Assembly (NCBI GenBank): GCA_947085325.1
Contig: CAMTVY010000010.1
Location: 121,276 to 185,275 of the forward strand
Origin: an uncultured Gammaproteobacteria bacterium
GTDB taxonomy: Bacteria > Pseudomonadota > Gammaproteobacteria > SURF-13
Direction of reading: 5' to 3'
Length of the DNA: 64,000 nucleotides
This document shows, piece by piece, positions 5,685 through 60,253 of this stretch. The notes below the pieces were generated by a model. It was not told the origin of the DNA. It saw nothing but the letters and a program-made list of their open reading frames with translations, and searched no databases. Each line of letters begins with the position of its first letter. The first letter of the stretch is position 1. The translations under genes and the position numbers were made by a program.

Positions 5685-7430
5685 TTAACTTAGCCGGGCA
5701 GTCTTGGCGAGTTTCAGCCCCACCTTCGCGATCACGTCGTGGTCAATCTCCCGCACCGTGATGGTGACGCTCCCCCATGCCACCCGATCCCCGACAACAA
5801 GCTTGCGGTTGAGCCGGCGCTCCATCAGTTCCGCCAAGGTCAAGGGCTGCTCATCCGGCTCCAGAGCAGCGCCATAAATTGCCGCCACGTCGGTTGCGCG
5901 GGCTGATCCGTTCAACACAAACTCCCCGAAGAAGCGTTGCGTGGAGAGCGGGCCTTCGGCGGGCAGCCGGGCGAAAGCGCGCGCCAGCTTCTCATAGTCT
6001 CCTCCCACAGCTATCACCACGGCCACGTCGCCGACCGTGTACTCCGTCTTCTTGCCCGGAAACACGAGTTGCCCCTCGCGGGCGAGGGCGACACATACCG
6101 CCGAGGTCTCCGGCATAACGCTCCCCAGCAGTTCATTGACGAGGCGACCGATGCATGGCGCATCCGCTTCGACGGGAATCTGGAGCAAGTCGGCGGGCCG
6201 GGAGAGCGGGAGCGCCAGTTCGATGCGATCGATCGGCTCTGCCTGCTGGGGTACCTGCACACGAAACAGGCGCGCAATCCAGGGCATCGTCGAGCCTTGC
6301 GCCACGAGTGATACCAGGACTACAGCGAAAGCCACATGGAACAACAGCGCTGAGTCCTTGATCCCCGCCATCACGGGAAACAGTGCCAGCACGATGGGCA
6401 CCGCGCCGCGCAGCCCCACCCAGGCGATGAAGCCCACCTCGCGGCGCGGAAAATGAAACGGCAGCAGGCTCAGCCAGATGGCGACGGGACGGGCGACCAG
6501 CATCAGAAAGACGGCTACGAGGACGGCGCTGGGCGCGTCCACCAATAGCTTGGTGGGTGTCACCAGCAGCCCCAGCACGAGAAACATGCCGGCTTGCGAG
6601 AGCCAGGCGAGGCCGTCCATGACCCGCAACACATGCCCGGTGGCGTGGGTGCGCCGATTGCCGATCAGCAGCCCGGCCAGATAGATGGCCAGAAAACCGC
6701 TGCCGCCCAGAAGGTTCACCGCCGCGAATAGCGCCAGACCTCCTGAGGCGATGAGCAGGGCATAGAGACCTTCGGCGAGACGCACCCGTTCCAGCAAGCG
6801 CGCCAGCAGGAATCCGCCCAGCGCCCCGCCCGCCGCGCCCAGTCCGAACTGTTGGGTAAAACTCCAGAGCAAGTCCACCGATCCCGGCGATTGTCCTGCC
6901 TTGATCCACTCGACCATGACAATCACCAGGAAAATCGCCATCGGGTCATTTGCGCCGGATTCGATTTCCAGCGTTGACCTCACACGCTCGTTGAGCCGGA
7001 TGCCACTTTGGCGCAGCAACGAGAACACCGCCGCCGCGTCGGTCGAACCCACGATGGCCCCGAGCAGCAAGCCGTAACGCCACTCCAGACCAAGCGCCCA
7101 TACCGTAAATGCAGCCACCAAGCCAGCCGTGGCGATGACGCCGAACGTCGCCAGCGCCAGGGCCGGGCGCAGGGCGACGCGGAAGGTCTGCATATTCGTC
7201 CGCAGCCCCCCATCGAGCAGGATGATGGCGAGCGCCAAGTTGCCGATGAAGAACGCGGTTTGGAAATCGCTGAACTGGATGCGCCCGGGGCCATCTTCAC
7301 CGGCAAGCATTCCCACGCCGAGAAAGATCAGCAGCAACGGCAGGCCAAGCCGAGTCGCCAGCAGGCTCGCGAGCACACTCACGAACAACAGCAGGCCGAT
7401 CAAGAAAAGGAGAGTATTGGCTGTTTCCAT
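5685..7430 (-). CDS. nhaP2: K+/H+ antiporter NhaP2 (CPA1 family) with C-terminal TrkA-C domain
   Basis: CPA1 Na_H_Exchanger core plus a C-terminal TrkA-C regulatory domain, as in CvrA/NhaP2. Start chosen at METANTLLFLIGL; the upstream extension to 7541 is unsupported. Confidence 0.85.
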   Translation of the reverse strand: METANTLLFLIGLLLFVSVLASLLATRLGLPLLLIFLGVGMLAGEDGPGRIQFSDFQTAFFIGNLALAIILLDGGLRTNMQTFRVALRPALALATFGVIATAGLVAAFTVWALGLEWRYGLLLGAIVGSTDAAAVFSLLRQSGIRLNERVRSTLEIESGANDPMAIFLVIVMVEWIKAGQSPGSVDLLWSFTQQFGLGAAGGALGGFLLARLLERVRLAEGLYALLIASGGLALFAAVNLLGGSGFLAIYLAGLLIGNRRTHATGHVLRVMDGLAWLSQAGMFLVLGLLVTPTKLLVDAPSAVLVAVFLMLVARPVAIWLSLLPFHFPRREVGFIAWVGLRGAVPIVLALFPVMAGIKDSALLFHVAFAVVLVSLVAQGSTMPWIARLFRVQVPQQAEPIDRIELALPLSRPADLLQIPVEADAPCIGRLVNELLGSVMPETSAVCVALAREGQLVFPGKKTEYTVGDVAVVIAVGGDYEKLARAFARLPAEGPLSTQRFFGEFVLNGSARATDVAAIYGAALEPDEQPLTLAELMERRLNRKLVVGDRVAWGSVTITVREIDHDVIAKVGLKLAKTARLS

Positions 7431-7788
7431 CCCAAGGGTAAGCCGCAGAGGAACTTGGTTCGATTGCCGCAGGAACATGCGGCCTGAGCTAATCCTATGC
7501 CAAGCTTGACATAGAAAACCACTCGTCGCCAGAATGTGCATCGAGCCGCCCTACTATTGCACTGATGCTTATTGGCGATCAGGAATTGAATCGGAGAAAG
7601 CAGCTGAGTTTATTTTTTTGTGAGGTTGTTTTTGTTGCAGGGCCCAATGCGGCCGCTCGCCGCTGAACCAGTGAGTGCCCGGATGGAATGAAATGAAATC
7701 CAGGAATTAATAATGAGGCCCGCAAAATCAATGGGCCAGACTCTGAGCCCTTTAATGCCTCCCTGCTGAAAATACTGCGGACGTAAAA

Positions 7789-7830
7789 AAACCGGCAAGC
7801 TGCATAAACAGCTTGCCGGTTTTTTGTTGA
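7789..7830. terminator. bidirectional rho-independent terminator hairpin downstream of the ppiC-type gene
   Basis: GCCGGCAAGCTG-cataaa-CAGCTTGCCGGT, a perfect 12-bp stem flanked by A7 on one side and T6 on the other. Confidence 0.65.
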
Positions 7831-7833
7831 GCG

Positions 7834-8727
7834 CTACTTGTCCGCTGGTGCTTCTGGTGCGGCAGCAGGTTCTGCGGGCTTCGTGGCCGGTGCGTCCTTG
7901 ATCTCGATCTTGGCCTTGCTCTTGAGCGTGGTGAGGTAGGTTTCGATATCCTTGTTCTGGAGAATGGAGCGGATGTTGTCCTTCACCTTTTCGAATGCCG
8001 GGGGCTGGATGTCACGCGTGTCTTCCAGCTTGATGATGTGCCAGCCAAACTGCGTCTGCACCGGGGTCTTGGTGTAGGTGCCTTTTTCCATGGTCTTTAC
8101 TGCATCACCAAAGGGTTGCACCATCTGTCCGGCTTCAAACCAGTTCAGGTTGCCGCCTTCCTTGGCCGAGCCGGTATCCTGGGATTTCTCCTTGGCGAGT
8201 GCGGCAAAGTCACCACCCTTGTCGAGTTGGGTAATGATGGCCTTGGCTTCGTCTTCGGTCTTCACCAGGATATGGCGTGCGTGATATTCCTTTCCGGTCA
8301 TCGCGCCTATGCGGCTTTCATATTCCTTTTGCAGGGCCTCATCGCTGAACTTGATGGACTCGATGTGAGCGCTGATGGCGGCGCCAGCGAGGATGTTGCG
8401 CGTCTGGTTTGCAATTTCGGCGGCGACATCGGGTTTCTTGTCCAGGCCTTTCTTTATGGCCTCGTTGTAAATCAGCTCACGGCTAATGAGTTCGTCTAGG
8501 GTTACCTTGCGATCTTCCTCGTCGTTGCCGGTAGTTGGACGCGACATGGCACGCTGGCGCGCGTAGGCATCGTAGGCCGCCTGCTGGATGGCGACACCAT
8601 TGACGATTGCAATGGGTGTGGCGGAGGCAGTGCTGCCGGATGTGCTCTCTGGTTTGTTGTTGCAGGCGGAGATGAACGCCGTGCTGAACAGGACGGCGGC
8701 GAGTGCGATGGTTTTCATGGATAACAT
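7834..8727 (-). CDS. PpiC/parvulin-type peptidyl-prolyl cis-trans isomerase, lipoprotein
   Basis: Signal peptide with lipobox FISAC. Rotamase domain (GKEYHARHILVKTEDEAKAI...GGDFAALAKEKSQD...FGWHIIKLED). Confidence 0.8.
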   Translation of the reverse strand: MLSMKTIALAAVLFSTAFISACNNKPESTSGSTASATPIAIVNGVAIQQAAYDAYARQRAMSRPTTGNDEEDRKVTLDELISRELIYNEAIKKGLDKKPDVAAEIANQTRNILAGAAISAHIESIKFSDEALQKEYESRIGAMTGKEYHARHILVKTEDEAKAIITQLDKGGDFAALAKEKSQDTGSAKEGGNLNWFEAGQMVQPFGDAVKTMEKGTYTKTPVQTQFGWHIIKLEDTRDIQPPAFEKVKDNIRSILQNKDIETYLTTLKSKAKIEIKDAPATKPAEPAAAPEAPADK

Positions 8728-8731
8728 GTGG

Positions 8732-9019
8732 CTAGTCCTTGGTGGGGTCAAATTCTTCGGGGGTCAATGCCCGTATGCTGAGCGCGTGAATTTCAGAGTG
8801 CATCTCGCGCGCCAGTGCATCATATACCAGTCGATGCCGTGCGAGCAGCCCCATGCCGGCGAAAGTCCCGGCCACGACGGTGACGTTGAAGTGGCCGCCG
8901 CCGGCCTGGGCGCCGGCATGGCCTGCATGTTTATGGCTTTCGTCGCTGATGACAAGGTGGTCGGGCGCAAGGGCGGCGGTCAGGCGTGCCCGGATGGTGT
9001 CGACGCGCGCGGCGGTCAC
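8732..9019 (-). CDS. bolA: BolA family transcriptional regulator
   Basis: IRARLTAALAPDHLVISDESHKHAGH...HFNVTVV is the BolA fold motif. GTG start. Confidence 0.8.
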   Translation of the reverse strand: MTAARVDTIRARLTAALAPDHLVISDESHKHAGHAGAQAGGGHFNVTVVAGTFAGMGLLARHRLVYDALAREMHSEIHALSIRALTPEEFDPTKD

Positions 9020-9318
9020 TATGGCAGCACCTGTTTGAAGGGCCTTACCGTGACGTGGGCATATACGCCTGCGCTGCGATACGGGTCGGCCTCGGCCCAG
9101 GCCTCGGCCTCGGCGAGCGAGCCGAATTCGGCGACGATCAGGCTGCCGGTAAATCCGGCGGGACCGGGGTCGGGGCTGTCGATGGCAGGGTGCGGGCCAG
9201 CCAGCACCAGCCGTCCGGCATCGCGCAGTGCATGTAGTCGCGCGAGGTGGGCGGCGCGTGCGGCGCCGCGCAGCGCGAGACTGTCCGGAACATCTTCTCC
9301 GTAGATGGCGTAGAGCAT
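9019..9318 (-). CDS. yciI: YciI family protein
   Basis: [17 protein letters not shown]... about 100 aa, YciI-like. The stop overlaps the bolA start by 1 nt. Confidence 0.8.
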
Positions 9319-9319
9319 G

Positions 9320-9862
9320 TTATTTTTCGTCCGTGGGGGGCGGCAGGTAGCGCGACAGGTACACCGCTTGCAGGATGACAAACAGCAGCGTCAGGCCCAC
9401 GATGCCGAACAGCTTGAAATTGACCCAGGTGTCGGTGTCGAAGTAATACACCACGTACAGGTTGGCGAACCCGAGCACGCAGAAGAACACTGTCCAGCTC
9501 AGATTGAGCCGCTTCCAGAGGGTGGCGGGCAGTGTCATGCTGCCCCCCATCATGCGCTGGGTGAGGTTTTTGCTGCCCAGATACTGGCTGCCGAGAAAGG
9601 CCGCGGCGAACAGCCAGTTCAGCACCGTGGGTTTCCATTTGATGAACATCTCGTCCTTGAGCAGCAGGGTGGCGCCGCCAAACACCACAATCAGCGCCAG
9701 GGTGACGAGATGCATGGTTTCGAACCGCCGGTGCTTGAGCCAGAACGCACCCACCTGCACAAAAGAGGCGGCAATGGCCACGGCGGTGGCGACATAGATG
9801 TCGTAGACCTTGTAGGCGGCAAAGAACAGCAGGATGGGGAATAGATCAAACAGGAATTTCAT
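9320..9862 (-). CDS. yciB: intracellular septation protein A (YciB/IspZ)
   Basis: [19 protein letters not shown]..., a 5-TM protein, with the yciB-yciI neighbourhood conserved. Confidence 0.9.
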
Positions 9863-9893
9863 GGCGCTATTTTAGCAGGGACAGCGGGTGATA

Positions 9894-12458
9894 TTACGGT
9901 GGCAGCAGGTTTTTCAGGCGATACAGGGTTTCGAGTGCCTGGCGCGGTGTAAGTTCATCGGGTTTGAGCGCGCGCAAGGTCTCGGTCAGGACATGCGGTG
10001 GCGTGGGCGCAAGCAGCGGCAATTGTGCGCTGTTCGCGGGCGGCATCTGCCCGCCCTGTTCGAGCGCGTACAGGCGCTGCTTGGCCTGTGTGATCACTGC
10101 CTGCGGCACACCCGCCAGCGCCGCCACCTGCAGGCCGTAGCTCTGGTTGGCCGGGCCGTCCTTGACGGCGTGCAGGAATACTATGCCGTCGCCGTGCTCG
10201 GCCGCGTCGAGGTGCACATTGGCGCAGGCGGGCAACTGCTCGGGCAGTGTGGTCAACTCGAAGTAGTGGGTGGCAAACAGGGTGTACGCGCCGAGCCGTG
10301 CGGCGAGATAGTGGGCACAGGCCCAGGCGAGCGAGAGACCGTCGAAGGTGCTGGTGCCGCGCCCGACCTCGTCCATCAGCACCAGACTTTCACGCGTGGC
10401 GTTGTGCAGGATGGTGGCGGTTTCCGTCATCTCGACCATGAAGGTGGAGCGCCCGCCCGCCAGATCGTCGGAGCTGCCGATGCGGGTGAAGATACGGTCG
10501 ATCGGGCCTATCGTCGCCCGCGCCGCAGGCACATAGCTGCCGATGTGGGCCAACAGCACGATGAGCGCGATCTGGCGCATGTAGGTGGATTTGCCGCCCA
10601 TATTGGGGCCGGTGATGATGAGCAGGCGGCGGTTGTCGTTGAGCTCGATATCGTTCGGCACAAACGGCGTGTCGAGTGACGCCTCCACAATCGGGTGGCG
10701 CCCGTCAATGATGGTAATGCCCGCCGTGGCGCTGAGTTCCGGTGCGCGCCAGTCCAGGCTGTCCGCGCGTTCGGCGAGCGTGGCGAGCACGTCAATTTCG
10801 GCCAGCGCGGCGGCGCACTGTTGCAGCGGAATCAGCAGAGTGACCAGCGCTTCGAGCAACTGGTCGTACAGCATTTTTTCGCGCGCCAGCGCACGTTCAG
10901 CGGCGGAGAGCGCCTTGTCTTCGAAGCTTTTCAGTTCCGGCGTGATGTAGCGTTCGGCGCCTTTCAGTGTCTGGCGGCGTTGGTAGTCGTCAGGAATTTT
11001 GCCGGACTGGGCGCGGCTGACTTCAATGTAATAACCGTGTACGCGATTGTAATTCACCTTGAGCGTAGCGATGCCGGTGCGCTCACGCTCGCGCGTCTCC
11101 AGCGCCAGCAGATAGCCGCCCGCGTTCTCGCGTAATTCGCGCAACTCGTCCAGCTCGGCATCGAAGCCGGGCGCGATCACGCCGCCGTCGCGGATCAGCA
11201 TGGGCGGGTTTTCCACCAGCGTCCGCAGCAGGTGCTGATGCAGGGCGGCATGGTCGCCGGTCTGCTGCGCCAGTTCAGCGATGCGCGGTGCATCCAGCCG
11301 AACCAGCAGGGCATGCACGGCGGGCAGCAAGCCGAGCGCCGTGCGCAGTTGCGCGAGATCACGCGGGCGGGCCGATTTGAGCGCCACCCGCGCGAGGATG
11401 CGTTCGATATCGCCGATGCCGCGCAATACCTCATGCAACGGCTGATAGCGCTGATCTTCCAGCAGCACGCCGAGGCTGTGCTGACGCATGCGCAGCACGC
11501 TGTGGTTGCGCAACGGCCGGTTGATCCAGCGCTTGAGCAAGCGGCTGCCCATGGCGGTGGCAGTGTGATCGAGCACGCCGCAGAGGGTGTGCTGGTGCGC
11601 GCCCGACAGGCTGAACTCGATCTCCAGATTGCGGCGGCTGGCGGCATCGAGCAGCAGGGCGTCGCTGCGGTTTTCCAGGCTGAGCGTGTGCAGGTGGGGC
11701 AGGCGGCTGCGCTGTGTGTCCTGCACGTAGGCCAGCAGGGCGCCCGCTGCGGCGATACCCAGCAGCGCCTGCGCGCAGCCGAAACCGGCCAGGTCGCGGG
11801 TGCCGAATTGGGTGCACAGCAGGCGCGTGGCCGTGTCGAGGTCGAAGTGCCACGGTGCCACCCGCCGTACGCCACGCCAGCCGTTCAGCGCTGCGATGGG
11901 GGCCAGGGCCTCGTTCACCAGTATTTCCGCCGGTCGCAGACGCTCAAGCTCGATCGCCAGCGCCTCTTCTCCCTCCATCTCGAGCACGCTGAAGCGGCCG
12001 CCTCCCAGATCGAGCGCCGCCAGCCCGAACCGGCCCTGCTGGGCATGCAGGCAGACGATCAGGGCGTCGCGCCGCTCCTCCAGCAGCGCCTCGTCGGTGA
12101 CCGTGCCGGGTGTGATGATGCGCGCCACTTTGCGCTCCACCGGGCCCTTGCTCCTGGCCGGATCGCCGACCTGTTCGCAGACCGCGACCGACTCCCCGGC
12201 GCGCACCAGCCGCGCAAGATAGACGTCGGCGGCATGATAGGGCACGCCCGCCATCGGGATCGGCGCGCCGCCCGACTGGCCGCGCGCCGTGAGCGTGATG
12301 TCGAGCAGGCGGGCGGCCTTGCGCGCGTCCTCGAAAAACAGTTCGTAGAAATCCCCCATGCGGTAAAACAGCAGCGTATCCGGGTGTTCGGCCTTGATGC
12401 GCAGATATTGCTGCATGACGGGCGTGTGCTGCGCCCCTGGGGTGTCGGGTTTGTTCAT
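9894..12458 (-). CDS. mutS: DNA mismatch repair protein MutS
   Basis: Full-length MutS ([35 protein letters not shown], the Walker A motif [13 protein letters not shown], and the MutS C-terminal domains). Confidence 0.97.
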
Positions 12459-51842: not shown

Positions 51843-53042
51843 ATGATGCACGACAGAAAAAAAGGCGGCCATAAAGGCCAGCGGTTCGACACGCGCGCCG
51901 TGCGCGCAGGCCAGATTCGCACCACGGAAGACGAGCAGTCCGAGCCGATCTTCCCTACCGTGAGCTTTGTGGCGCAGAGCGCCGCGCAGGCCGCCGCGCG
52001 CTTTTCAGGCGCCGAGCCGGGCAACATCTACTCGCGTTTCACCAACCCCACGGTACGCACCTTCGAGCAGCGCCTCGCCAGCCTCGAAGGCGGCGAGCGC
52101 TGTGTGGCGACCGGCTCCGGCATGTCCGCCATCCTCACCACCTGCATGGGGCTGCTGAAGAGCGGCGACCACATCGTCGCCTCGCGCAGCATCTTCGGCC
52201 CCACGGTGATCCTGTTCAATACCATCCTCGCGCGCTTCGGCATCGAGACCAGCTTTGTGCCGCTCACCGATCTCGCTGCGTGGCAGCAGGCACTGCGCCC
52301 CAACACGCGCCTGCTGTTCCTGGAGACGCCGTCCAATCCGCTCACCGAAGTGGCCGACATCGCCGCGCTGGCGAAAATCGCGCACAAAAACGGAAGTTTA
52401 CTGGTGGTGGACAACTGCTTCTGCACTCCGGCGTTGCAGCTACCGCTCGCGCTCGGCGCGGACATCGTCGTGCACTCCGCGAGCAAATACATCGACGGCC
52501 AGGGCCGCGCGGTGGGCGGCGCGATCGTCGGCAGCGACAAACTGGTGGGCGGCGACATCTACGCCTTCCTGCGTACCGCCGGGCCGAGCATGAGCCCGTT
52601 CAATGCCTGGATTTATCTCAAGGGGCTGGAAACCCTGCGCCTGCGTATGGACGCACACAGCCGCAGTGCGCTGCAGCTTGCCGAATGGCTGGAACAGCAA
52701 CCCGCAGTCAAGCGCGTGCATTACCCGGCCCTGCCGTCGCACCCGCAGCACGCCCTCGCCATGAAGCAGCAAACCGCGGGCGGCGGCGTGTTGTCGTTTG
52801 AACTCGCGGGCGGGAAAGAGGCCGCGTGGAAACTGATCGACGCCACACAGATCATCTCCATCACCGCCACCTTCGGCGACACCAAGAGCACCATCACCCA
52901 CCCCGCCACCACCACCCACTGGCGCCTGACACCCGAAGCCCGCGCCGCCGCCGGCATCAGCGACGGGCTGGTGCGCATCGGCGTCGGCCTTGAAGACGTT
53001 GAGGATTTGAAGGACGACCTCAAGGTCGGGCTCTCCGCCTGA
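51843..53042 (+). CDS. metZ: O-succinylhomoserine sulfhydrylase
   Basis: PLP-dependent Cys/Met metabolism fold (SASKYIDGQGR). Conserved purF-metZ linkage. Confidence 0.88.
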   Translation: MMHDRKKGGHKGQRFDTRAVRAGQIRTTEDEQSEPIFPTVSFVAQSAAQAAARFSGAEPGNIYSRFTNPTVRTFEQRLASLEGGERCVATGSGMSAILTTCMGLLKSGDHIVASRSIFGPTVILFNTILARFGIETSFVPLTDLAAWQQALRPNTRLLFLETPSNPLTEVADIAALAKIAHKNGSLLVVDNCFCTPALQLPLALGADIVVHSASKYIDGQGRAVGGAIVGSDKLVGGDIYAFLRTAGPSMSPFNAWIYLKGLETLRLRMDAHSRSALQLAEWLEQQPAVKRVHYPALPSHPQHALAMKQQTAGGGVLSFELAGGKEAAWKLIDATQIISITATFGDTKSTITHPATTTHWRLTPEARAAAGISDGLVRIGVGLEDVEDLKDDLKVGLSA

Positions 53043-53105
53043 CACTACCACCCTCAGCGCGAGAGATATTGCGCCTGAGAAGCATGGCAGTGCAGCCTTG
53101 ATATG

Positions 53106-53132
53106 TGTAATGCGATGGATTACAATCGCATT
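53106..53132 (+). promoter_or_regulatory. nested palindromes immediately upstream of higB (candidate HigA operator)
   Basis: TGTAAT-gcgatgg-ATTACA nested with AATGCGAT-ggattaca-ATCGCATT, ending 6 nt before the higB ATG. Confidence 0.4.
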
Positions 53133-53137
53133 CGCCC

Positions 53138-53415
53138 ATGATAAAAACCTTCGCACGCAAAGGGCTTGAGAACTTTTTTAGCCGAGGCTCGAAAAAAGGC
53201 ATCAACCCCCAGCAGGCCGACCGTATCCGGCGCATTCTCGACCGTCTAGAAGGGGTGGTAGCGGCGGCGGATATGAGCTTGCCCGCTATGGTTTCCATGA
53301 ACTGAAGGGCAACCGGAAAGGCACCTACAGTGTGGAGGTGTCGGGCAACTGGCGGATTACATTTCGATTCAAGGGCGGCAACGCCTTTGACGTGAACCTT
53401 GAGGATTACCACTGA
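53138..53415 (+). pseudogene. higB: HigB (plasmid-maintenance killer, PF05015-type RelE/ParE toxin) disrupted by a 1-nt frameshift
   Basis: Frame A gives MIKTFARKGLENFFSRGSKKGINPQQADRIRRILDRLEGVVAAADMSLPAMVSMN*. Frame B continues ...GFHELKGNRKGTYSVEVSGNWRITFRFKGGNAFDVNLEDYH*. Together they match the HigB consensus if one G is restored in cccG-ctatgg (about 53285). Confidence 0.7.
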
Positions 53416-53729
53416 TGGAAACTCTACGCGACCCTAAACGCAAACCCACCCATCCCGGCGAAGTGCTGCGGAAAGACGTGTTACCCGCCTTGGACATCAC
53501 GCAAACGGAATTTGCCAACCGGCTAGGGGTATCGCGTCTCACCGTGTCGGAACTGCTGCACGAAAAGCGCACCCTATCCCCGGATATGGCGGTGCGCCTG
53601 GGCAAGCTGCTGAACACCACCCCGGAAAGCTGGGTAAGAATGCAATACGCTGTGGATTTGTGGGAGCTGACCCACGGCAAAAACGCCAAACGGTACCGAG
53701 GCATCAAGCCGCTGGACATAGCGGCGTAG
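53415..53729 (+). CDS. higA: HigA antitoxin (XRE-family HTH)
   Basis: HPGEVLRKDVLPALDITQTEFANRLGVSRLTVSELLHEKRTLSPDMAVRLGKLLNTTPESW. Start overlaps the higB stop (TGATG). Confidence 0.85.
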   Translation: METLRDPKRKPTHPGEVLRKDVLPALDITQTEFANRLGVSRLTVSELLHEKRTLSPDMAVRLGKLLNTTPESWVRMQYAVDLWELTHGKNAKRYRGIKPLDIAA

Positions 53730-53855
53730 GCTTCGCCAAGGATGGGAGCCATGTAGAGTGGGAAACTTGGTGTCCACATGTTTGAATCGAGCTTGAATCC
53801 GCGTGGGCAAACAAAATCCGTTTGCCCACCCTTGGCTGATTCATGAGATAGCTTC

Positions 53856-54706
53856 ATGGCCGCACCGGCGAACATCGGAACAGAGAGCCAGAAACTGATC
53901 GCGTTGCTCGATGAGGCCACAGACGTACTTACTTCATTCGTTGTTCCGCTTTATGAGGACAACGACGGTCGGCCATCCCTGTTCGGAAGTGGTTTCTTCG
54001 TCAGATCTGGAGTTGATCACTTTCTTGTTTCCGCAGCTCATGTACTTGAAGCGCTGCGGGGAAGACCACTGTTCTATTACATAACGCCAACCACCACGCG
54101 AAAACTCTCTGGACAGCTTCGGCTTAATCGGTGGAATGGTGACCGCAACAGTGACCCGATAGACATCGGGGTTCTGAGGCTGACAGAAAGCTCCCCCCAT
54201 ATCCTGAAGTGAAGAAGTTCGCGATGGACATCTCTTGCCTTCGTCCACGACTTCTTCCGCGAGATGAGAAGATATATGCATTTGTGGGCTTTCCGGCGTC
54301 ACGCGGTAAAGTGAATACACTGGTGAAGGAAGTTACAGCGGCGCCTTACGCTTATCGGAGCCGCTCCGCTCCCGATCAAGAGTACTCCATGTATGGGGTG
54401 TCGCCAGAGACTCATATCGTATTGCCGCTCGACTTAAAGCAGGGCGTCGACTCGAATGGAGGTCATCGAAACTTCCCAAAGCCTCAAGGAATGAGCGGAT
54501 CTCCAATTTGGACATTGCTCGATGAACAGGGTGCCACCGACTCGCAGGTATTTTCGGTCGTCGCCGTGGGTACCAAGTACCGAAAGGCCAAGCGAGTTCT
54601 GCTTGGGACCGATATTGGAGTTGCAGTGAGGATGATTCATGAAGCTGTCTTACGGGGCAATCAACCTGATCTACCAGAAAGTGTAGGGCGGATTAGCGAA
54701 GCGTAA
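53856..54706 (+). pseudogene. cytoplasmic trypsin-like (S1/Trypsin_2) serine protease, split into two ORFs at a C6 homopolymer
   Basis: ORF1 (53856-54212) carries the His (GSGFFV...VSAAHV) and Asp (DIGVLRL) motifs. ORF2 (54209-54706, -1 frame) carries the Ser motif GMSGSPIW. Inserting one C in the C6 run at 54193-54198 fuses them into a ~283-aa protein. No signal peptide. GC about 52%. Confidence 0.6.
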
Positions 54707-54779
54707 TCCGCCGAATGTGTGGGCTGACGCAGAAGTTAAGTTGAGCGGGTTTAACAGATGAATAAATCTTTGAAAAGAT

Positions 54780-54855
54780 TGGAGCTGGCGAGAGGAGTCG
54801 AACCCCCGACCGGCTGATTACAAATCAGCTGCTCTACCAACTGAGCTACGCCAGC
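54780..54855 (-). tRNA. tRNA-Thr (anticodon TGT)
   Basis: The reverse complement folds as GCTGGCG-TA-GCTCAGTTGGTAGAGC-A-GCTGA-TTTGTAA-TCAGC-...-GGTTCGACTCC-...-CGCCAGC-T-CCA. The 3' end abuts the low-GC islet. Confidence 0.88.
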
Positions 54856-60004: not shown

Positions 60005-60035
60005 GTTGGATCAAGGAGCGAAGCGACGGATCCAA

Positions 60036-60084
60036 CGACGCACAGGGACGTGCTAGTGTCGCGGGAGGCAGGATGCCGGGAGCG
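60036..60084 (+). repeat. about 48-bp direct repeat, copy 2 (immediately downstream of folD)
   Basis: CGACGCACAGGGACGTGCTAGTGTCGCGGGAGGCAGGATGCCGGGAGCG. Confidence 0.7.
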
Positions 60085-60094
60085 ACCAAACCTG

Positions 60095-60253
60095 CTCGAT
60101 CTATACATAGCGCCAGAAATCGTAGCGAGCGGCTTTCAGGCGGGGGCGGCGGAGCGCAGGAACCGGAGTGTACAAGTAGTACATGAGGATTCCGAGCACC
60201 GCACGCACCCGCATCTAAAGACGCGCAGTAGATTTATGGCGCTATGTATAATT
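60095..60253. repeat. pair of 14-20 bp inverted repeats (TATACATAGCGCCA / TGGCGCTATGTATA) enclosing about 120 bp between convergent folD and mfd
   Basis: Left arm 60102-60115 and right arm 60237-60250 are perfect 14-mers. With one mismatch the arms extend to about 20 bp. The right arm contains TATAAT and the mfd stop codon. Confidence 0.6.

Follow-up and report, generated by a model that had tools for sequence, protein, structure and literature searches.

A probable remnant of lateral DNA, with a broken HigBA module and a broken trypsin-fold protease gene, at the metZ/tRNA-Thr junction of an uncultured gammaproteobacterium

A 64,000-nucleotide (nt) stretch from an uncultured Gammaproteobacteria bacterium (GenBank assembly GCA_947085325.1, contig CAMTVY010000010.1, positions 121,276 to 185,275), here called the window and numbered from its own first base, contains between metZ and a tRNA-Thr(UGU) gene a 1.7-kb islet of low guanine-plus-cytosine (GC) content. 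The islet carries a HigBA toxin-antitoxin module and the gene of a trypsin-fold serine protease. We consider it probable, at roughly 0.8, that this islet is the integrase-less, decaying remnant of lateral DNA in a hypervariable metZ/tRNA-Thr(UGU) hotspot, and that its two cassettes are unrelated and arrived independently. On this reading it is no new system but an ordinary decayed remnant in a hotspot of a familiar type, and its annotation should be corrected to list an orphan antitoxin and two pseudogenes at a tRNA-Thr hotspot rather than a new two-part system. The features on which this account draws are as follows.

53043-54779 (no strand): the whole low-GC islet, from the metZ stop codon to the 3' end of tRNA-Thr(UGU), delimited by composition; its content is variable among relatives
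51843-53042 (+): metZ, which flanks the islet
54780-54855 (-): tRNA-Thr(UGU), gene anticodon tgt, called by ARAGORN and matching the Rfam tRNA family at 68.6 bits; the conserved anchor of the hotspot
53096-53741 (+): higBA cassette (promoter, higB pseudogene, higA), from a 647-nt alignment to positions 8418-9064 of relative L035 at 93.5% nt identity
53098-53132 (+): sigma-70-like promoter with an inverted repeat; -35 box TTGATA at 53098-53103, 17-nt spacer, -10 box TACAAT at 53121-53126
53138-53415 (+): higB pseudogene (RelE-fold toxin), with a 1-nt deletion after 53284; the frame stops at 53305 after 55 amino acids (aa)
53415-53729 (+): higA, an intact helix-turn-helix (HTH) antitoxin (TIGR02607, HTH_3) and presumed autorepressor
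53803-53829 (no strand): hairpin between higA and the protease gene, with a perfect 10-bp stem and a 7-nt loop (-18 kcal/mol, z -3.5)
53856-54706 (+): pseudogene of a stand-alone, leaderless PA-clan (trypsin-fold) serine protease, from the family alignment, a DNA alignment to homologue L121 and an AlphaFold2 (AF2) model
54687-54712 (no strand): hairpin over the present stop codon of the protease gene, with 9-bp arms GGCGGATTA and TAATCCGCC (-16 kcal/mol, z -3.4)

The tRNA-Thr gene lies on the minus strand and its 3' end therefore faces the islet. The two abut: the last base of the islet is 54779 and the tRNA begins at 54780. No other stretch of 1737 bp in the window is as low in GC as the islet, at 0.534 (mean 0.615, standard deviation 0.026), and metZ stands at 0.657. 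At third codon positions (GC3), the protease gene has 0.52-0.54 as compared to 0.85 in metZ. An earlier reading of the sequence (the original prediction) had set the islet against a uniform background of about 65%; its low GC holds, but the background ranges over about 61-66% and is not uniform. By the list of open reading frames (ORFs) and the frame translations, the only recognisable genes of the islet are higB, higA and the protease gene, and none of its other ORFs was identified. The seven flanking core genes (purF, metZ, coaX, birA, a sensor kinase gene, folD and mfd) are all intact and free of frameshifts.

Relatives support the interpretation of this junction as a site of repeated insertion. 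We ranked them by MetZ identity (83-92%) and read what follows metZ in five lineages.

L032 (MetZ 92%): an unrelated HigBA pair, its stop 6 nt from tRNA-Thr; protease absent
L035 (MetZ 84%): the window's higBA cassette, two unknown genes, a Y1 transposase gene, an HTH gene and a nucleotidyl transferase gene, then tRNA-Thr
L036 and L117 (MetZ 84-85%): Fic (L036 8393-14576; L117 9404-10594), then MazG-like, SLFN-type helicase/ATPase and tetratricopeptide repeat (TPR) genes in L036; genes beyond Fic are visible in L036 only, and the L117 contig stops just past Fic
L118 (MetZ 83%): an unknown gene, an HTH gene and a DUF6941 gene

In both L032 and L035, tRNA-Thr occupies the same position as in the window, and the inserts at the junction are lower in GC than their flanks in every relative (0.50-0.56 vs 0.60-0.63). 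L035 carries, 33 nt past metZ, a 52-nt copy of the tRNA-Thr 3' half in direct orientation, with the true tRNA 5.4 kb off, and L118 carries a copy of about 44 nt in the same place beside metZ. Direct repeats of a tRNA 3' half are what an integrase usually leaves behind when it inserts DNA into a tRNA gene. Given different cargo in five lineages and such repeats in two of them, we regard the site as a tRNA-linked insertion hotspot. The original prediction had taken the islet for the remnant of an element integrated at the tRNA 3' end, and the variable, lower-GC cargo of the relatives and the tRNA repeats in L035 and L118 bear it out on this point. The Fic, MazG-like, SLFN-type helicase and TPR genes of L036 look like a defence island in the same hotspot.

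The islet resembles genomic islands linked to tRNA genes, and the derivatives of these that have no integrase (cis-mobilisable elements), in its place at a tRNA 3' end, its lower GC and its variable content; L035 and L118 show a further likeness, in that this site carries direct repeats of the tRNA 3' half in both. It differs from them in that the window has neither an integrase nor a flanking repeat, and at 1.7 kb it is a remnant and not a mobile element.

Several results weigh against our interpretation. No integrase or recombinase gene was present among the islet ORFs. The original prediction had looked to a direct repeat of the tRNA-Thr 3' end near the end of metZ; none was found anywhere in the window (24 nt, up to three mismatches), and local alignment of the tRNA 3' end to 53043-53140, 53725-53860 and 54700-54780 gave only chance matches of 6-8 nt. 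It had also looked to relatives in which metZ directly precedes tRNA-Thr, and we found no relative with such an empty junction. Because of this, we infer insertion from variable content and not from a before-and-after pair. MetZ also retrieved 80 metagenome loci at 65-76% identity; in these, metZ and tRNA-Thr are no longer syntenic, and they tell nothing about an empty site. Two points bear on the reality of the gene lesions: both deletions lie in short C/G runs, an error-prone context on some sequencing platforms, and one of the two runs whose Logan assemblies match the window (see below) may contain reads of the deposited assembly and so be less than fully independent of it.

The history that would best accommodate these observations has several steps. 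An integrase targeting tRNA-Thr would first have opened the site, and later recombination and deletion would have removed both the integrase and the repeat. One cassette would have brought a higBA type II operon, its toxin then being inactivated by a 1-nt deletion. The other would have been a gene-sized cassette with a stand-alone cytoplasmic trypsin-fold protease, inactivated by a deletion in a run of C and deprived of its stop codon as well. The intact protease would have been an accessory enzyme, possibly toxic or defensive, and readily lost by cells.

The borders of the first cassette are sharp. Homology of the higBA segment with L035 extends from the -35 box (53096) to 12 nt past the higA stop (53741) and drops sharply at both ends; the 3' ends of metZ in the window and L035 are only about 86% identical. 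The cassette thus appears to behave as one discrete transferable block. The sigma-70-like site before higB scored 10 of 12 in a promoter scan. A perfect 8-nt inverted repeat, AATGCGAT (53109-53116) and ATCGCATT (53125-53132), overlaps this promoter and its -10 box, folds at -12.7 kcal/mol (z -2.4), and is a candidate HigA operator.

The lesion in higB is the absence of one G, the window reading CCC-GC where the intact orthologue of L035 reads CCCGGC. Its repair gives LPGYGFHEL, and the repaired HigB matches PF05015 at 8.3e-15 (55.5 bits, cut-off 27). HigA matches TIGR02607 at 7.8e-30 (102.6 bits, cut-off 47.7) and HTH_3 at 1.6e-8; its 90%-identity cluster comprises 16 members, one of them called a HigA family antitoxin by its source. 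The higB stop codon (53413-53415) and the higA start (53415) share 1 nt. Between the window and L035, codon differences in higA are 11 synonymous and 1 non-synonymous, as compared to 9 and 8 in higB. This pattern fits relaxed constraint on the toxin alone, and by the same counts higA is still under purifying selection.

In its PF05015 toxin, TIGR02607 antitoxin, toxin-first order, 1-nt overlap, own promoter and palindrome over the -10 box, the module is like other HigBA type II systems. It departs from them in that its toxin is frameshifted after 55 aa and only the antitoxin is intact. As read from its sequence, the module is an orphan antitoxin beside a toxin pseudogene. As things stand, HigA would do no more than repress the promoter of its own operon; should a HigB of the same type enter the cell, HigA could neutralise it.

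The L035 copy of this cassette has a surrounding of its own. Just past higA (L035 9073-9173), about 100 nt are left of a metZ 3' end; this remnant is 95% identical to the metZ end of L118 vs 88% to that of L035 itself. A recombination anchored in metZ, displacing the native gene end, may thus have brought higBA and the tRNA fragment into L035.

The protease gene is broken into frames of 118 and 165 aa. One C is missing in the run at 54193-54198 (C6), where the nearest intact homologue (L121/P0001; 83% aa and 85% nt identity) reads GTTCCACCA. One added C restores PPYPEVKKFAMD and with it the PPYPEV motif, whose two prolines (P114-P115) are invariant in the 32 aligned family sequences. The native stop codon is lost too: TTA stands at 54650-54652 vs TAA in L121, and an 18-codon tail results. 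The catalytic residues His62, Asp103 and Ser214 are invariant in the same alignment, which contains no conserved cysteine; the protein has a hydrophilic N-terminus. The frameshift parts His and Asp from Ser, and activity of the encoded protease is therefore not expected. Homology with L121 (53852-54661) covers the coding sequence only: it sets in 4 nt ahead of the ATG and ends shortly after the native stop.

What the original prediction had described of the individual elements is upheld, with small corrections. The HigB gene does carry a 1-nt frameshift, HigA is intact, an operator-like palindrome lies upstream (its role as operator being putative), and the protease is a leaderless trypsin-fold enzyme that keeps its triad and is split by a frameshift. 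The loss of the protease stop codon and the second hairpin (54687-54712) had been overlooked, and the 10-bp hairpin, which is real, had been placed at 53800-53826 and not at 53803-53829. This first hairpin occurs once in the window and has no T-tail. Comparison with repeats in the window and with Rfam showed it to be neither like repetitive extragenic palindromes nor a member of an Rfam family, and it is not conserved 5' of the nearest protease homologue, L121.

A 13-nt direct repeat (12/13), GG[C/A]TGATTCATGA, is found at 53834-53846 and 54630-54642, that is, just 5' of the protease start and within the 3' end of the gene. It lies near the limits of the L121 homology, and its occurrence there is probably due to chance.

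The repaired protease belongs to a family that, judging from database searches, is widespread, unnamed, stand-alone and leaderless, with members of about 260 aa. A word-indexed search returned at least 168 homologues, and a profile search of 50%-identity representatives returned 210 at E <= 1e-30, 1699 at 1e-10 and 3408 at 1e-3. Nearly all members are 250-285 aa long and have a single matched stretch; their source annotation is hypothetical protein. Conserved motifs are PPYPEV.KFAMD and FPKPQGMSGSP. Trypsin_2 matches 26 of the 32 aligned members at E <= 0.01 (best 1.8e-8), and the window protease scores 17 bits against it (cut-off 27.6). NCBIfam gave no match to the repaired protease, and PHROGs a weak one (E 0.006) to a family of unknown function. 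In the phage collections no record carries the family; distant relatives with 21-30% identity occur on seven plasmids of the plasmid collections, and one distant contig of IMG/VR matches.

The AF2 model (predicted local distance difference test score 86.8, predicted template modelling score 0.85) predicts a chymotrypsin-type double barrel after an N-terminal helix. Foldseek searches of the PDB with this model found generic S1 proteases (elastase, tPA, uPA) at E ~2e-9 and template modelling scores of 0.55-0.68. When solved structures were searched by sequence, there was only a marginal DegP-like match (E 0.056) over about 60 residues of the His region. The protease is like the HtrA/DegP-type housekeeping serine proteases insofar as these supply its best solved-structure sequence match and Trypsin_2 is its sole Pfam family match. 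It is unlike them in that this match is marginal, in that it has neither a PDZ domain nor a signal peptide, and in its sporadic distribution and foreign composition.

The GC content of the protease gene departs from its flanks in 24 of 26 loci, being lower in Proteobacteria and higher in two Flavobacteria, and the copies in loci L018, L021 and L023 are also frameshifted or fragmentary. Four of the 24 scanned loci (the window, L011, L016 and L017) have the gene less than 600 bp from the 3' side of a tRNA, for which the chance expectation for a random gene is, by a rough estimate, below 1%. In L011 (CP019169.1, Betaproteobacteria bacterium GR16-43), the homologue lies in a 4.3-kb integrase-less islet (6864-11215), which has tRNA-Asn at one border and a direct repeat (47/48) of the tRNA-Asn 3' end at the other, together with a protein kinase gene, a 306-aa unknown gene and a DUF4145 gene, all on one strand.

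A role in defence is one hypothesis for the family. It is possible, if doubtful, that the family is an uncharacterised single-gene abortive-infection or toxic effector, which travels as a gene-sized cassette into tRNA-proximal hotspots and is quickly lost when unneeded; in that case the copy in the window would be the dead form of a new defence gene. PADLOC, from which the original prediction had hoped for a verdict, has no model that matches the window protease. Among 32 relatives it gave weak matches to LmuA in 23 (best 3e-7), to the single-gene candidate PDC-S45 in 18 (best 1.1e-4; the window protein without a match) and to RT-Protease_XI in 12 (best 1e-5). A pooled Pfam and PADLOC scan of 147 neighbours of the protease genes was heterogeneous and has no per-locus breakdown; its single PD-T4-6 match is probably the L011 kinase.

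Trypsin-like protease domains do form part of anti-phage systems, namely Lamassu (LmuA-protease), type XI retrons (RT-protease) and trypsin-metallo-beta-lactamase (MBL) and trypsin-nuclease pairs (PMC12799240; bioRxiv 10.1101/2025.11.14.688446, 10.1101/2025.09.03.673762). The published trypsin-fold defence proteases are sensor-fused or effector-paired (PMC12799240; bioRxiv 10.1101/2025.11.14.688446). The window family has the PA-clan fold, the His-Asp-Ser triad and the cytoplasmic location in common with them. Unlike them, it consists of stand-alone proteins of about 260 aa that are not fused to a sensor and have no effector or partner gene conserved beside them, and the islet contains none of the defence partners LmuB/C, reverse transcriptase, MBL/nuclease effector or sensor domain. 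We treat a defence role as a hypothesis, because the family matches defence protease domains only weakly. From context and weak homology, an accessory toxic or defensive enzyme is the leading hypothesis for the intact protease, and a tentative one.

The protease family is, in our view, the lead worth keeping: it is unnamed, stand-alone, mostly foreign in composition, often decayed and enriched at tRNA 3' ends, and one of its copies adjoins a kinase that is probably PD-T4-6-like in a repeat-bounded islet (L011). Should the family turn out to act in defence, the known repertoire would gain a trypsin-like protease that has neither sensor nor partner.

Decay itself might be doubted. If the frameshifts were sequencing or assembly errors in short homopolymer runs, all three genes would be intact and functional, and both indels are indeed single bases in C/G runs (CCC-GC and C6). 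We consider this improbable. Logan assemblies of two other runs carry the identical sequence, with 100% identity to the window across the lesion sites (SRR4188484, 7018 bp; ERR3478710, 920 bp). Moreover, the loss of the protease stop is a substitution and not an indel, non-synonymous changes are far more numerous in higB than in higA, and the adjoining core genes have no frameshifts. Given the matching sequence in the assemblies of two other runs, the lesions in higB and in the protease gene are probably real.

The original prediction had further paired HigBA with the protease. As one two-module defence or abortive-infection system, the protease might, for example, act on HigA or on the HigB target. 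The two are adjacent on the same strand within one low-GC islet, and there are family members with weak matches to the protease domains of defence systems. However, the protease is missing from L035, where the same higBA is present, and also from the closest relative, L032, whose HigBA is unrelated. The homology borders of the two cassettes are separate, at 53741 for higBA and 53852 for the protease, as is their GC content (0.56 vs 0.51). The co-occurrence that the original prediction had proposed to look for did not appear either: an adjacent HigBA pair was found in none of the 27 protease loci. In an all-against-all comparison of neighbours, these loci yielded no conserved protease neighbour, a small upstream gene included. 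HigB- or HigA-like ORFs near a protease homologue were seen in two of the 27, once at a distance of 7 kb (L007) and once as a lone HTH protein (L015). The pooled Pfam scan of the 147 neighbours gave 163 families, each with at most three occurrences. The reading of HigBA and the protease as one system is thus largely refuted, and we hold it to be very unlikely.

The only neighbours of the protease seen more than twice were genes with a GFA domain (PF04828), in L006, L007 and L027 (3 of 27). They lie within 2 kb of it, on varying sides and at varying distances, and their recurrence is probably a coincidence between small accessory genes.

It is also hard to credit that the C run of the protease gene is a switch, giving the full-length protease in some cells by phase variation or on some ribosomes by programmed -1 frameshifting. 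One extra C in the C6 run would restore the frame, and an ancestral C7 run (TCC CCC CCA) would be prone to slippage. A run of six is nevertheless short for phase variation, the codons contain no X XXY YYZ slippery heptamer, and intact homologues have no homopolymer at the frameshift point (L121 reads GTTCCACCA). The same C6 is present in the two other assemblies, and the lost stop codon and the broken higB next to it point to general decay. With a short run, no slippery heptamer and a stop loss in the same gene, both kinds of switch are unlikely. Least likely of all is that the genes are native, vertically inherited and merely atypical in composition, with no island involved: a higBA pair does follow metZ in three lineages (the window, L032 and L035), but the L032 pair is unrelated in sequence, the L035 cassette is closer to that of the window than the flanking core genes are and lies within tRNA-repeat borders, the protease is absent from all five relatives, and GC3 is about 0.3 away from that of metZ, so that on sequence grounds this view is contradicted by the comparison with relatives.

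More broadly, the metZ/tRNA-Thr junction illustrates clearly how a small hotspot of uncultured Gammaproteobacteria is refilled in different lineages with genes of toxin-antitoxin and defence type: two kinds of HigBA, and Fic together with MazG-like and SLFN-type helicase genes.

Some assembled contigs end at or near this junction. Logan contigs L030 and L031, from two independent runs, both stop at window position 54826, within tRNA-Thr, and contig L025 covers exactly 53793-54712. Repeats or population variants at the hotspot may account for the breaks at 54826 and for the limits of L025, or coverage may simply have been low. Elsewhere in the neighbourhood, L032 has a RelB/YafQ toxin-antitoxin pair (8596-9166) between folD and mfd, where the window has 238 bp (60005-60241); the folD-mfd interval thus appears to be a second small variable site nearby.

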